Sequence record: KP682377.1
Reading direction: 5' to 3' (one strand)
Source of the DNA: Escherichia phage PA16
DNA length: 62,708 nucleotides
Part shown: piece after piece, positions 3,001 through 15,000 of the stretch
Layout of the letters: every line of letters starts with the position of its first letter
Numbering within the stretch: position 1 is the first letter of the stretch
Program-made: the position numbers

Positions 3001-6000
3001 TTTAATCATTTCTTTGTCGGTGAACGTTGTCATGTGTTAGTCCTTATCCACTTCAACGCCATCTTTCAGCGTGATGCCGTGCCAATCATCAGCCCAACTG
3101 GTTAACCCAGGCGCATCAATGCTAGGCATATAGACGCTTGCAGTGTGGTAGCCCTTATCGTTATCAATGCTGGCAACGTGCTCGCCGTTGTATGCGCTCA
3201 GCGTGTCTAGGACACTATAAAACTTTCCTCCGGCTGCCCTGAAATCCTTTACAGCCTTCACAAGACGATTCCACGCTTTTTCCTGTTCTGGCGTCAGGTC
3301 GATTAATTCCTGCAAAGTTGCCATTTCAGTTTTCCTTATATGGGTTAATTTTATTGTGCAGTGTGTTGAACGACGCCCATACCACGTCGTTATACAACTC
3401 AATAACTAGCTCAATTATTTTCCCGATTGCCCAGACAAAAATTAGCGGGGATATCGGTGTCATCAACACGATAAACAGAATGAGAAACAAAAATTCTGTC
3501 GCTCTACTTTTTCGCGGATATTCTTTTCTGAATAATGTAGGCACATCACTCTCCTTTGTTGCTCCTCAAAATTTTATGCCCTGGCGCAAAAGCACGCGTT
3601 TTGTCTTTGCTTATTCGCCAGCCATCCTTGCGCGCCTCTTTTGCACAGCCAGCCCATGACGTACCGATATACTCACCGAAGTCTGGCGACTTATATTTGC
3701 CATCTGTACACTGGAGGCAATCACAATAGAGATGCATGGTGTAACTTGCAGCAATAGCCATATCACTCTCCTTTAGTGCGCAAGTGGTTTTTCCAGCGGT
3801 TTTGCTCCGCGCTGGGCTTTTTGCAAAAACCACAATCCATCATCCCGTAATATTTCATCAACCCCATCCGTCGGTTGCTGAGTCTCACCCACTGCCAGAC
3901 GCCAGGAGCGTTTCTACGAACTAACAGAATCTTTGCTTTACGGTTTTTCATCGTTTTGCTCTCCTGCATCTCTTTGCTGCTCGTCGTGCCGCTGCAATAC
4001 CGGTATGGCGGCGCTTTGGTGTCGGGATGATGTTCTTTGCAATTAGCGCAGAAGCCCAAAAACGAGTCGGATACGGTAACAAGCCGATACATGCCACACG
4101 CATTACTCACCTCTTTTGATGCGAATGCCAGCGGCGCGCTCGGCTTCACTTTGTTCCCAAAACCACTTGTGAAGCGCCATAAGCTTTTCGTCAATCGGTG
4201 CATATTTGCGATTAAAGTAGGCCTGAGCATCTTTCTCAGATTCGTCCGGTAATTCGCCAGGGCCAAACAGTGTGTTATAAATCCATGCTAGTCCGCTCTT
4301 AGCGTCGCCAGTTGCCTGCCATTCGATAATGGCAGCCTGCATGACCAGAATGTTTTTCCCGATTAATAGGTCCAGTTCTTTGTACCGGTTGCGGATGTAT
4401 GCATTCTCGCTTTGTAATTTTGCGTTGCGCTTTTCTGAGGCTTCAAGTAACGCCTGCTTATCGCGTAGAGCTTCTTCCAGTTCAGCAACATGGCATTCAC
4501 TATCAATAAGGTTGTTCTCTGCTGCTTCAAGCTCAACACGCAGCTTCCCAACCGTAAGCGCAATCTCCTCGTTCTCCTGGTCGCGGCGTTTGATGTATTG
4601 CTGGTTTCTTTCCTGTTCATCCAGCAGTGCCAGCACGGTAGCCGGGTTAGCCTCTGCTATGAATTCAGCGTTTGCATAAGCCTGATCATCTGATTCAATC
4701 AGGCAGTTAACATGACATTCCGCAATCACGCCACCGGGTTCTCCTTTCCATTTTTGGCAAACAAAAACTCCTGTTAAATTGCCGTGCTGGTTAACAGATG
4801 TATGCCCTACGATGTAGCTTCCTTTAGTTGCTTTCTCTGCCTTTTCACGCAGTGCCTGATAATTAATTTCGCTCACTTCGAACCTCTCTGTTTACTGATA
4901 AGCTCCAGATCCTCCTGGCAACTTGCACAAGTCCGACAACCCTGAACGGCCAGGCGTCTTCGCTCATCTATGGGATCGCCACACTCACAACAATGAGTGG
5001 CAGATATAGCCTGGTGGTTCAGGCGGCGCATTTTTATTGCTGTGTTGCGCTGTAATTCTTCAATTTCTGATGCTGAATCAATGAGGTCTGCCATCTTTCA
5101 TTAATCCCTGAATTGTTGGTTAATACGCTTGAGGGTGAATGCGAATAATAAAAAAGGAGCCTGTAGCTCCCTGATGATTTTGCTTTTCATGTTCACCGTT
5201 CCTTAAAGACGCCGTTTAACATGCCGATCGCCAGACTTAAATGAGTCGGTGTGAATCCCATTAGCGTTACCGTTTCGCGGTGCTTCTTCAGTACGCTACG
5301 GCAAATGTCATCGACGTTTTTATCCGGAAACTGCTGTCTGGCTTTTTTGATTTCAGAATTAGCCTGACGGGCAATGCTGCGAAGGGCGTTTTCCTGCTGA
5401 GGTGTCATTGAACAAGTCCCATGTCGGCAAGCATAAGCACACAGAATATGAAACCTGCTGCCAGAAAAATGCATTCTGTTGTTGTCATGCCGGGTCTCTC
5501 TCGTTTGCTTCTGCTTTCGCCGCCATCATTTCCAGCTTTTGTGAAAGGGATGTGGCTAACGTATGAAATTCTTCGTCTGTTTCTACTGGTATTGGCACAA
5601 ACCTGACTCCAATTTGAGCGAGGCTATGTGCCATCTCGATACTCGTTCTTAACTCAACGGGAGATGCTTTGTGCATACAGCTCCCCGTTTATTATTTATC
5701 TCCTCAGCCAGCCGCTGTGCTTTCAGGGGATTTCTGATAACAGAAAGGCCGGGAAATACCCAGCCTCGCTTTGTAACGGAGTAGACGAAAGTGATCGCAC
5801 CTACCCGGATATTATCGTGAGGATGCTTCATCGCCATTGCTCCCCAAATACAAAACCAATTTCAGCCAGTGCCTCGTCCATTTTTTCGATGAACTCCGGC
5901 ACCATCTCGTCAAAACTCGCCATGTACTTTTCATCCCGCTCAACCACGACATAATGCAGGCCTTCACGCTTCATACGTGGGTCATAGTTGGCAAAGTACC

Positions 6001-12000: not shown

Positions 12001-15000
12001 AGCTATTCACTATTGGAAATCTTAAGAAATGGAACAAACAAGTTACAGCAAACTATCACAGCGAGAAATTGATCGCGCTGAAACTGATTTACTCATCAAC
12101 CTGTCAACGCTTACCCAGCGCGGTCTGGCAAAGATGATTGGCTGTCATGAATCGAAGATAAGCAGAACGGACTGGAGATTTATTGCTTCGGTCTTGTGTG
12201 CTTTCGGAATGGCATCAGACATCAGTCCGATTAGCAGGGCTTTTAAGTATGCGCTTGATGAAATCACAAAGAAAAAATCCCCGGCCGCCACCGAGGATTT
12301 TAAGCAAATTGATATGCAATTCTGAGGGAATTACTGGATCAATCCACAGGAGTAATTATGACAAAACAACTCAGTCCTTACCAGGACAAAATTCACAAAC
12401 ACATACTACGTGATCGCTTCCTGTCCAGCTTCAAGCAGCCTGGTCGATTCCGGGCTGAGTTGGAAAAAGTGAAGCTGATGCAGAAGGAGAAAGGTCATGA
12501 GTAACATATCTAATCTAGCCGAAGCCAGAGAGGCAAGAAGGCTACAACAACCGCATCAAAGCAGCGGTAAGGGGTATGCCTTGCTGCACCGTAAAATTAT
12601 GGATGTGCCGTTTTACAAGGACGCAGAAGCTGCGCATCTGTGGGTTCACTTAATCCTCAAAGCAAAGCATACGCCTGAGTATGTAATGACTGACGCAGGA
12701 GAAATTCTGGTAGGCAGAGGGAAGCTACTTGGCGGTAGAAACTCTCTGGCGTTTGAAACAGGACTCAAACCAGATCGCGTTCAGTACCTGCTTAGAAAGT
12801 TCAAAAAACTCGGCATGATTGACTGGGTTTCACACGGTAAATTCTCAGTTTTCTCGGTAGAGAAATATGACGATTATCAGTCAAATTTTGTACCAGCAGA
12901 TTACCAGCAAATTACCACCTCAAAGCCAGCAATACCAATGCCTGCAAGCAATACTGTACCAGCAGATTACCAGCAAATTACCACAGATAAAGAATATAAT
13001 AATATTATCTCTAATACTGACGTATTAGAGAGTGCCACAGCAGACAAAAAGTCTGACAAGAAAAAACCTTCCGTTAGCTGTCAGGATGTTGTCGATGCTT
13101 ACCACGAAATCCTTCCTGAAGCGCCAAAAATCCGCGCACTGAATGACAAGCGTAAAAACCAGATCCGAACGTTCTGGCGCAAAGCCGGAGTGATAACCCG
13201 CCAGCTTGACGGGCATGGGTTCACGATGCAGGACTGGAGAAATTATTTGAGCTACGTAGGCGAAAATTGCCGATGGATGTTCGAAGAGCGCCCAAACCAT
13301 CAGCGCGGAACCGTCTGGCACAAAAAGGGATTTGATTTCCTGCTTAACGATAATACCTACCTGAAAGTTCGTGAGGGTGAACACGATGACCGATAATTTT
13401 TATGCGCCGCCCCATAGCATCGAGGCAGAGCAGGCGGTGATTGGTGGATTGCTTCTGGATGATGACAGCAGTGAGCGCGTCCAGAAAGTTCTGGCGATGC
13501 TGAAGCCTGATTCATTTTACAGCCGACCACACAAAATCATTTTCGAAGAAATAACCAGAATGCACCGGGAGCAAAAGCCAGTAGATGGCCTGACGCTTTT
13601 CGATGAACTGGAGCGTAAATCGTTAACGGCGTCTGTTGGCGGTTTTGCTTATATCGCTGAGATCGCAAAGAACACGCCAAGCGCAGCAAACATCGTTGCC
13701 TATGCAATGCAGGTTCGTGAAACCGCAATGGAACGCTACGCCATCAACCGCATGACTGAAGCGACGGAATTGCTCTATTCCCGCAACGGAATGACTGCAA
13801 CGCAGAAGTACGAAGCTATTCAGGCGATTTTCACGCAACTGACAGACCATGCAAAAACCGGATCGCGTCGCGGCCTTCGCTCATTTGGCGAGGTCATGGA
13901 AGACTGGGTTAGCGACCTTGAGAAGCGATTTGACCCGTCAGGCGAACAACGAGGAATGAGCACAGGGATCCCATCGCTGGACAGGATGCTGTCACCGAAA
14001 GGTCTGGTGAAAGGCTCTCTGTTTGTCATTGGCGCTCGCCCTAAGATGGGGAAAACGACGCTATACAGCCAGATGGCAATCAATTGCGCAGTGCATGAGA
14101 AAAAGCCCGCTCTGATGTTCAGCCTTGAAATGCCAGGTGATCAGATACTGGAAAAACTGGTAGGACAGAAGTCAGGTGTTAACCCGAATATTTTTTACCT
14201 TCCGGCGACAAATGACGCCGATGACGGCTATCAGGGTGATTACGATGGTGACTTCAACAGGGCGATCGAAACAGCTAATCGCTTGAGTGAAATCGACCTG
14301 CTTTACATCGACGACACGCCGGGATTATCTCTGGCTCAAATCGTCAGCGAAAGCCGTCGAATCAAACGAGAAAAAGGATGCGTTGGCATGATTCTGGTCG
14401 ATTACCTGACACTAATGACCGCTGAGAAGGCCGATCGCAACGACCTTGCTTACGGCATGATCACCAAAGGACTGAAGAACCTTGCCAAAGAGCTTGATTG
14501 CGTTGTTGTGCTTCTGACGCAGCTTAACCGCGCACTGGAAAGCCGAACCAATAAACGCCCACTACCAAGTGACTCACGAGATACAGGGCAGATTGAACAG
14601 GATTGCGATTATTGGGTGGGGATCCATCGTGAAGGTGCTTTTGATGACAGTGTTCCACCTGGTGAAACCGAACTAATCCTTCGTCTCAATCGTCATGGCA
14701 ATACCGGCACGGTGTATTGCATTCAGGCAAATGGCGCTATTTATGACACAGACCAACAGTCTGCTGAAATGCGCCGACGTGAACGCGAGGAACCGCAGTC
14801 CAAGAAGAAAGGAGGATTCTGATGAATAAAAAACAATTAGCCATTCTCGAAAAGGCATGGGATGCACAAATATCATACGCTTTGAAAGAACAGGCACTAC
14901 CAATAATCCAGACCAAATCGAAAATAGCCAGGCAGTTATGCGATGGCGGATTCCTGAACGAAATTGAGATTACGCGCCAGATGGTAACGTTTAAAGGGTA

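Follow-up and report, generated by a model that had tools for sequence, protein, structure and literature searches.

Layout of the early region

The sequence considered here belongs to Escherichia phage PA16 (sequence record KP682377.1), and "the window" refers to the whole stretch of 62,708 nucleotides that was analysed. The subject is its early region (5828-14822), which runs from the recombination genes exo, bet and gam through kil, cIII, the antiterminator gene N, the repressor gene cI and cro to the replication initiator gene O and the helicase gene P. An earlier note, made from the sequence alone, had described this stretch as a mosaic joint between a lambda-type recombination module and an adjacent P22-type replication module. 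The comparisons presented below leave us highly confident that it is a lambdoid patchwork of the usual kind, which arose when lambdoid phages and prophages residing in the same cell recombined. Between 4842 and 15088 it has at least eight joints, two of which lie inside genes (cI and O). The observation behind the note was largely right and its interpretation partly so, the two-module picture being too simple.

Early-region extracts of lambda (29000-44000), P22 (23000-38000), 933W (3001-18000) and HK022 (22002-37000) were compared with the window by BLASTN and by a 100-bp sliding identity profile, HK97 was compared at the protein level only, and a phage collection was searched by megablast with window positions 5828-14822 (8,995 bases). 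Proteins encoded in the window were searched against Pfam and PHROG, and orf22 additionally against NCBIfam and PADLOC. Junctions were checked by base-by-base alignment, hairpins and promoters were located by terminator and promoter scans, and operator positions were transferred from the annotation of AP005153, a record that is identical here, by adding 4627 to the position in that locus.

In the sliding profile, which the note had proposed as a check, the mosaic is directly visible. Base-by-base alignment places joints at about 4842, 8526 (933W), 8583 (lambda), 10905, about 11311, 11897, 12014, 12365 and 14825, and homology resumes at 15088. At these junctions the identity drops from more than 95% to unalignable within about 20 bp, so the sharp boundaries of lambdoid modular mosaicism that the note had anticipated are indeed present. 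The joints are step-like and coincide with terminators, with the borders of genes or with linkers between domains, and the islands that flank the replication cassette are widely spread. Hairpins were found at or beside several of them, namely at 8557-8578, 9555-9576 (tM), 12274-12301 (oop) and 15117-15140 (tR2).

The recombination block

The left part of the region is a lambda-like block on the minus strand with the following features:

4842-8583, minus strand: lambda-like block with near-continuous lambda identity from about 4842 to the 3' edge of lambda ral; it contains the N-terminal codons of an ea22-like open reading frame (ORF), a DksA-type zinc-finger ORF, orf61, orf63, orf60a, exo, bet, gam, kil, cIII and ea10
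5828-6508, minus strand: exo, lambda Red exonuclease (98.2% amino acid identity to lambda Exo over 226 residues)
6505-7290, minus strand: bet, Red-beta single-strand annealing protein (99.2% amino acid identity to lambda Bet)
7296-7712, minus strand: gam, RecBCD inhibitor (97.1% amino acid identity to lambda Gam over 138 residues)
7667-7936, minus strand: kil ORF, overlapping cIII (98.9% amino acid identity to lambda)
7779-7943, minus strand: cIII, overlapping kil (100% amino acid identity to lambda)
8016-8384, minus strand: ea10 (99.2% amino acid identity to lambda Ea10)
8557-8578, minus strand: hairpin resembling a terminator, where the lambda block ends on the right (terminator scan)

BLASTN aligned window 4828-8583 with lambda 30347-34103 as one segment of 3757 bp with 97.4% identity, and chance is no issue, as the BLAST E-values are 0. 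Protein identity to lambda is 90-100% per gene across the block and 97-100% for exo, bet, gam, kil and cIII. These genes, which together make up the lambda Red module with kil and cIII, are all present in the lambda order and are, as the note had held, essentially lambda-identical. The note had, however, let the lambda-like stretch begin at 5828, about 1 kb too far to the right. On the other side homology ends near the hairpin at 8557-8578, for 933W at 8526 and for lambda at 8583.

The window and 933W are 98.6% identical over 3001-8526 and 100% identical up to about 5400. In a three-way comparison with lambda and 933W (4842-8526), the window agrees with 933W at 27 of the 28 variable sites up to about 5620, and beyond this point lambda-like, 933W-like and unique sites are interleaved. 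This pattern suggests that an additional, subtle joint lies near 5620 and that the Red region has undergone exchange on a fine scale, and the interleaving is consistent with repeated homologous exchange among close alleles. The intergenic sequence at 8403-8544 corresponds to HK022 26489-26600 and 27658-27696, and since the HK022 copy is split by IS903 (26601-27657), the window holds the uninterrupted form.

The immunity region

The recombination block is not followed directly by the replication module, as the note had assumed, but is separated from it by about 3.4 kb of other ancestry (8584-12013). The main features of this immunity region are:

8877-9149, minus strand: N antiterminator of the HK97/933W type (Pfam N_peptide, E 2e-32)
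9248-9293, minus strand: nutL, with boxA GGCTCTTTAAACAA, a spacer hairpin and boxB TGGCT-GAAA-AGCCA, read from the sequence
9339-9414, minus strand: PL promoter and oL region (TTGACC, 17 nt, TACTAT; promoter scan)
9340-9356, 9365-9381 and 9398-9414, minus strand: three oL operators (transferred from the AP005153 annotation)
9508-9576, minus strand: tM/timm terminator island that closes the cI operon and is conserved in lambda and 933W
10901-11311, minus strand: C-terminal domain of cI (S24 self-cleavage and oligomerisation), lambda allele (BLASTN and protein alignment)
11312-11602, minus strand: N-terminal helix-turn-helix domain of cI, non-lambda allele (Pfam HTH_3)
11569-11585, 11595-11611 and 11627-11643, plus strand: oR operators with PRM and PR (transferred from the AP005153 annotation)
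11672-11887, plus strand: cro, HTH_3 type, immunity-specific (Pfam HTH_3, E 4e-12)
11898-11943, plus strand: nutR, with boxA CGCTCTTTGTAACAA, a spacer hairpin and boxB TCGCT-GAAA-AGCGA, aligned to the annotated 933W nutR

The note had assigned N, cI, cro, the initiator and the helicase to lineages other than that of lambda. This holds for cro, O and P, which lack similarity to lambda at the BLAST level, and also for N, which is only weakly lambda-like (35% over 63 amino acids, pairwise E 1e-4). It does not hold for the whole of cI, one half of which is foreign while its C-terminal domain is the lambda allele. N shares 41% amino acid identity with HK97 N, including the arginine-rich N-terminus and a C-terminal stretch of 21 identical residues, and about 40% with 933W N and P22 gp24. 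Its ORF extends back to 9221, but translation probably starts at the ATG at 9149, as a ribosome-binding sequence (GGAGGA) precedes this codon; this suggests an N protein of 90 amino acids instead of the maximal 114-amino-acid ORF. TBLASTN gave no match for cro in the lambda, P22, 933W and HK022 extracts.

The segment 11897-12365, which extends from nutR into cII, is 96% identical to 933W, so that nutR lies inside a 933W-shared segment that starts at 11897, and HK022 has no homology to its left part (11897-12013). HK022 uses Nun and put, not N and nut. The function of nutL is proposed by analogy with the annotated 933W nut sites. Its boxB (9248-9261, minus strand) and that of nutR (11930-11943, plus strand) each form a stem of 5 bp with the four-base loop GAAA, whereas the boxB of 933W nutR has a five-base GACAA loop despite the 96% identity of the surrounding segment. 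Because the N proteins of the window phage and 933W are only about 40% identical, this one-base difference in the loop may reflect the matching of N and boxB. The tM island is a conserved element within the immunity region: window 9461-9576 is 87.5% identical to lambda 35708-35826, and the island is 83% identical to 933W 9865-9936, a stretch that includes the annotated tM of 933W; the terminator scan places a hairpin at 9555-9576. In the BLASTN comparison 933W gave no match in the immunity region or the replication genes; in contrast to the window it carries stk, its own cI and cro, and lambda-type O, P and ren.

A chimeric cI repressor

Lambda homology within cI starts exactly at the stop codon (10905) and extends to 11311, where 10905-11311 is 93.4% identical in nucleotide sequence to lambda 37231-37637. 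The corresponding residues 97-233 (137 amino acids) differ from lambda cI by a single amino acid. The N-terminal domain shows only about 30% amino acid identity to lambda cI and has no nucleotide match in the lambda, P22, 933W and HK022 extracts. Together with the operators and cro, this domain is 94-98.5% identical in the non-Stx coliphages ev017, ev207, E212, 2B8, PhiR11_1 and Dewey. These alignments show cI to be an intragenic chimera that is joined at the interdomain linker (about 11311). It is not a lambda cI over its whole length that would confer the same immunity, as the lambda-like residues are limited to 97-233 and cro is unrelated to lambda cro. By sequence, it belongs to the LexA/cI type of S24 self-cleaving repressors, with Pfam HTH_3 and Peptidase_S24 matches and the lambda QAG, GNSM and FKKL motifs kept in the alignment, and cleavage is predicted. 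The start codon probably lies at 11554 or 11560. Given its lambda-identical C-terminal domain, the repressor could possibly form mixed oligomers with lambda-family repressors of co-resident prophages.

The record of phage VT2-Sakai (NC_000902) annotates cI as two fragments (10900-11409 and 11467-11595), while an uninterrupted reading frame spans window 10901-11602, so that the older record seems to differ either in its sequence or in its annotation.

The replication module

The replication module and the adjoining cII comprise the following features:

12029-12325, plus strand: cII (Pfam Phage_CII; amino acid identity 96.9% to HK022, 95.9% to 933W and 35% to lambda)
12274-12301, minus strand: oop terminator at the 3' end of cII (terminator scan)
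12358-12504, plus strand: orf48-like small gene (Pfam DUF2740, E 9e-29; amino acid identity 100% to HK022 and 85% to P22 orf48)
12497-13396, plus strand: O-type replication initiator, HK022 allele (98.7% amino acid identity to HK022 O; phrog_345, "replication initiation O-like")
12890-13031, plus strand: putative origin (ori) inside O, with iterons, then an AT-rich stretch and, at 13008-13031, an inverted repeat of 10 bp
12987-14825, plus strand: sub-module of the C-terminal domain of O and P, more widely spread than the N-terminal domain of O
13371-14822, plus strand: P, replicative helicase of the DnaB family (Pfam DnaB, 6e-32, and DnaB_C, 3e-60)

The allele of this module is that of HK022. 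BLASTN aligned 12014-14825, which covers cII, orf48, O and P, with HK022 at 98.3% identity over 2812 bp, and P shares 99.4% of its amino acids with HK022 P, as opposed to 31% with P22 gp12 and 32% with HK97 P. Among HK022, HK620 and mEp235 the identity over 12014-14825 is 98.3-98.9%. A search of the phage collection with the cassette (12366-14825) matched it in full in HK022, HK620, mEp235, phiv205-1 and Stx2 phage 86 at 98.4-99.2% identity (98.7-99.2% for the latter four), and it thus represents the HK022/HK620 module (O3/P3, Eru3) across orf48, O, ori and P. HK022 itself differs from the window in its erf/abc2 recombination module, which takes the place of Red, and in the absence of orf28. 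A lambda-type replication module is not present: O has no detectable similarity to lambda O and no Pfam Phage_rep_O match, and P shows no similarity to lambda P.

The P22-type module of the note is correct with regard to the architecture, as the origin repeats lie inside the initiator gene and the next gene downstream encodes a helicase with DnaB domains. P22 likewise has an initiator gene with an internal origin, its own DnaB-type helicase, orf48/DUF2740 upstream and the flanking boundary islands. With regard to the alleles the designation fails. Neither BLASTN nor the sliding identity profile gave a nucleotide match to P22 in O or P, and at the protein level O resembles P22 gp18 in the C-terminal third only (25% over 144 aligned columns, O residues 159-294, pairwise E 1e-4). 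The sole P22 match near the replication module is 12333-12504 (oop/orf48) with 90.7% identity. Moreover, the recombination module of P22 is erf/arf/abc and not Red.

The putative origin contains two 29-bp copies (12890-12918 and 12956-12984), each with TACCAGCARAT twice, which amounts to four exact tandem copies; in the whole window the motif has 8 matches as opposed to 2.2 expected. From this layout, we infer that 12890-13031 works as the origin. In the phages Sf6, IME10, HK75, HK633, mEpX2 and mEp234 and the Salmonella phages L, ST160, ST-32 and ST-29, only 12987-14825 was matched (95-98.7%), and the search of the phage collection gave no match to 12366-12986 in the phages of this kind (Sf6, L, ST160 and others). 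The Sf6 homology starts in the AT-rich stretch right after the origin repeats, and in the annotated rep_origin of Sf6 TTGTCCAACG-type repeats are found where the window has TACCAGCARAT. The P22-like podoviruses Sf6, L and ST160 share the C-terminal domain of O, P, the origin layout and the annotated boundary sequences bsq5 and bsq6 with the window, and differ from it in the N-terminal domain of O, the iterons and the immunity regions. O, too, is a chimera, in this case joined at the AT-rich part of ori. Because the Sf6-type phages share 12987-14825 but have a different N-terminal domain and different iterons, the N-terminal domain of O travels with the iterons and the C-terminal domain with the helicase. 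In the established lambda model, the N-terminus of O binds the iterons and the C-terminus contacts the partner protein. The sharing pattern observed here fits this model, by analogy with which the N-terminal domain would bind the iterons.

Cassette edges and orf28

The cassette is bracketed by short conserved sequences and is followed by a single inserted gene:

12333-12367, plus strand: left boundary sequence, ACTGGATCAATCCACAGGAGTAATTATGAC and the next 5 bases, reaching to the fourth codon of the first replication-module gene
14822-15091, plus strand: orf28, 89 amino acids, in the position of lambda ren (phrog_2239)
15088-15164, plus strand: right boundary sequence, ninA and the tR2 terminator (hairpin 15117-15140)

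The left boundary sequence is 97% identical to Sf6 27827-27861, which is annotated as "bsq5; boundary sequence". The first replication-module gene is the orf48-like gene in the window and P22, and O in lambda and 933W. Lambda and 933W cease to be homologous at 12365, when about three codons of this gene have been passed, whereas the homology to P22 and HK022 continues. The island at the 3' end of cII and oop (12264-12365) is 79% identical to lambda. On the right, 15088-15164 is 98.7% identical to lambda 40567-40642, 93% to P22 ninA/terminator L2, 100% to 933W and 98.7% to the Sf6 "bsq6; boundary sequence". This 77-bp island was found in 420 phage records, beside Ren or helicases of different types, and the cassette itself in 109 records. 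The arrangement is that of a mosaic with conserved boundaries as annotated in Sf6, in which short conserved sequences flank a variable cassette. The nin region that follows (15088-17036) is 98.9% identical to 933W.

In comparison with HK022, orf28 is a clean one-gene insertion of 262 bp (14826-15087) with ATGA start-stop overlaps at both ends. It occurs in 113 phage records, among them phi24B, Min27 and Salmonella phage BTP1. Both orf28 and orf20 matched only PHROG families without known function; a PADLOC match of orf28 with an E-value of 0.009 was below the threshold and was disregarded.

Taken over the whole region, the window shares with lambda the gene order, the block 4842-8583, the C-terminal domain of cI and the islands at tM, the cII 3' end/oop and ninA/tR2. 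It differs from lambda in that ral, sieB and rexAB are missing, the DNA-binding domain of cI, the operators and cro are different, the similarity of N is no more than weak, the sequence of O is unrelated, a DnaB-family helicase replaces P, the DnaB loader of lambda, and orf28 replaces ren.

Origin of the mosaic

From left to right, the patchwork consists of the nin-L/Red/kil/cIII/ea10 block in its lambda allele (4842-8583), a separate type of immunity region (8584-11896) with N, nutL, PL/oL, the cI operon, the chimeric cI, oR and cro, a nutR-cII part common to 933W from 11897, a replication cassette of the HK022/HK620 allele (12014-14825), orf28 as a one-gene insertion and a nin region common to 933W from 15088. 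Exchange would have taken place at short conserved sequences at the module edges, such as terminators, start-stop overlaps and boundary sequences, or illegitimately with subsequent selection, and within genes at the domain linkers. Selection would retain only functional combinations and so keep interacting parts together, namely the DNA-binding domain of the repressor with the operators and cro, the N-terminal domain of O with the iterons, and the C-terminal domain of O with the helicase. In the resulting phage, the Red genes would serve recombination, and cI, cro, N and the nut sites would serve immunity and antitermination. From what is known of lambda and P22, the N-terminal domain of O would bind its own iterons and the C-terminal domain would recruit the phage's own DnaB-type helicase; as P is a full-length protein of the DnaB family, the hijacking and loading of the host DnaB in the manner of lambda P would presumably not be needed.

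Nothing that contradicts the patchwork was found in the comparison with the four reference early regions. Some limits nevertheless apply. The boundary islands could be conserved solely for what they themselves encode (tR2, the oop region and ribosome-binding sites), their use as recombination sites is presumed from sequence, and the direction and order of the exchanges cannot be deduced from present-day sequences.

A single joint, at which a lambda-derived recombination module directly abuts a P22-derived replication module, would agree with the P22 kind of architecture, with the DUF2740 gene orf48 that precedes O as in P22 (85% amino acid identity; 90.7% nucleotide identity over 12333-12504) and with the presence of the same O C-terminal domain and P in the P22-like podoviruses Sf6, L and ST160 (95-98.6%). 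However, the missing P22 nucleotide match in O and P, together with the 98.3% identity of their DNA to HK022, refutes the label "P22-derived" at the sequence level; P has only 31% amino acid identity to gp12, the similarity of O is weak and restricted to its C-terminal third, and where one joint would be expected there are eight or more, with an unrelated immunity region of 3.4 kb between the two modules. We therefore consider this explanation very unlikely. Even less can be said for vertical divergence, in which the unmatched segments would be fast-diverging parts of a lambda-like ancestor without any recombination. Lambdoid immunity and replication genes evolve under diversifying selection, and a weak residual similarity to lambda exists in N and cII (35% each). 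But the segments without a lambda match are 94-99% identical elsewhere, the replication module in HK022, HK620 and mEp235, and the N-terminal domain of cI and cro in ev017, 2B8 and E212; the identity changes in steps from more than 95% to unalignable within about 20 bp, and the DnaB-family P and lambda P are unrelated proteins, which makes this explanation barely credible.

The genomes of E. coli O157:H7 hold many near-identical lambdoid prophages, which makes their assembly difficult (PMC4587872), so that a mosaic could also arise as an artefact if reads of similar prophages were mis-joined. Yet the same arrangement is present at 99.9-100% in 26 records from independent projects, every segment has a near-identical intact counterpart in unrelated phages, the joints fall at gene or domain borders and all reading frames are open. 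An artefact is accordingly a negligible prospect, and recombination between co-resident lambdoid phages and prophages remains the preferred explanation.

Identity of the phage and published descriptions

The megablast search of the phage collection revealed 100% nucleotide identity over all 8,995 bases to PA4, PA5, PA11 and their relatives. PA4 and its relatives (KP682372 and related records) match at the same coordinates as the window and also have a total length of 62,708 bp. Two phages of E. coli O157:H7 Morioka V526, one Stx1-converting and the other Stx2 phage II, are likewise 100% identical over 5828-14822, and VT2-Sakai is 99.9% identical. In total, 26 records match at 99.9-100% across this stretch; 19 of them are PA phages, and VT2-Sakai, Stx2 phage II and the Stx1 phage of Morioka are also included. 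The note had named uniform identity to one reference as what would refute it, and this occurs only in the trivial sense that all of these records (about 100%) represent the same phage type. It follows from the 100% match with the PA records and the near-identity to VT2-Sakai that the stretch is the early region of the Sakai-type Stx2a prophage (Sp5/VT2-Sakai/PST1-1) of E. coli O157:H7. PST1-1 is the name used for the Sakai-type Stx2a prophage where it is set against 933W (PMC4587872). With the exception of the cI annotation in VT2-Sakai, there is essentially no difference between the window and VT2-Sakai or the relatives of PA4 and PA5.

The mosaic of this early region is already known, and its arrangement has been published more than once (PMC3430580; PMC8951638; PMC4587872). 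That the replication module is of another type than that of lambda and 933W has likewise been published. Five distinct O/P systems are described for Stx phages, of which O3/P3 is that of Stx2 phage II, VT2-Sakai and phage 86 (PMC3430580). VT2-Sakai is the reference for the replication type Eru3, and its cI, which has an overall identity of 61% to lambda cI, is assigned to Clade I, the clade nearest to lambda cI (PMC8951638). In the deposited annotations exo, bet, gam, kil, cIII, ea10, N, cI, cro and cII already carry these names, O is entered as "similar to HK022 O" and P is described as a helicase like DnaB, and in AP005153 a "region V" begins at the equivalent of window 8520, near the 933W breakpoint at 8526. 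The exact breakpoints and the domain-level view of the cI and O chimeras are refinements and no discoveries.

What can usefully be corrected is the name of the replication module, which is the HK022/HK620 (Eru3, O3/P3) allele rather than P22-derived; the view of cI and O, both of which are chimeric within the gene, cI with its joint at a domain linker and O with its joint at the origin; and the view of the cassette, which is bracketed by short boundary sequences found across hundreds of lambdoid and P22-like phages. Since an influence of the replication-module and repressor type on lysogen stability and Shiga-toxin output has been proposed (PMC8951638), the right module assignment is of some practical value in the typing of Stx phages.

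Passenger genes of the cI operon

Two further features lie downstream of cI:

9878-10399, minus strand: orf22, 173 amino acids, in the cI operon in the slot of lambda rexAB (phrog_2602 only)
10558-10891, minus strand: decayed DUF3024 gene (pseudogene) directly downstream of cI

In TBLASTN, the DUF3024 protein of 933W matches the window in three reading frames with an in-frame stop, and the region is 81.8% identical in nucleotide sequence to 933W 11629-12051. The gene is intact in 933W, Salmonella phage ST160 and prophages of Morganellaceae. DUF3024 and orf22 were considered as an obligate pair, which was rejected because loci of Salmonella and Serratia carry orf22 without DUF3024.

The protein encoded by orf22 has no match in Pfam, NCBIfam or PADLOC. 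Its AlphaFold2 model, which was built from an alignment of 15 sequences and is of mediocre quality (pLDDT 70), gave no PDB match with E < 1 in Foldseek; the weak look-alikes were N-terminal domains of integrases only, and no function is claimed on this basis. Salmonella, Cronobacter, Yersinia, Serratia, Proteus, Providencia and Morganella have homologues that are 41-83% identical. That orf22 is expressed from the prophage, acts in exclusion or defence and moves together with immunity regions, an idea related to the mixed cI oligomers mentioned above, is conceivable but rather doubtful. In every locus examined, orf22 lies between an S24 repressor, which it follows directly, and N, which is further downstream, and it follows a cI-type repressor in prophages of Escherichia, Salmonella, Serratia and Morganellaceae, while three different replication modules and several different recombinase modules are found around its homologues.

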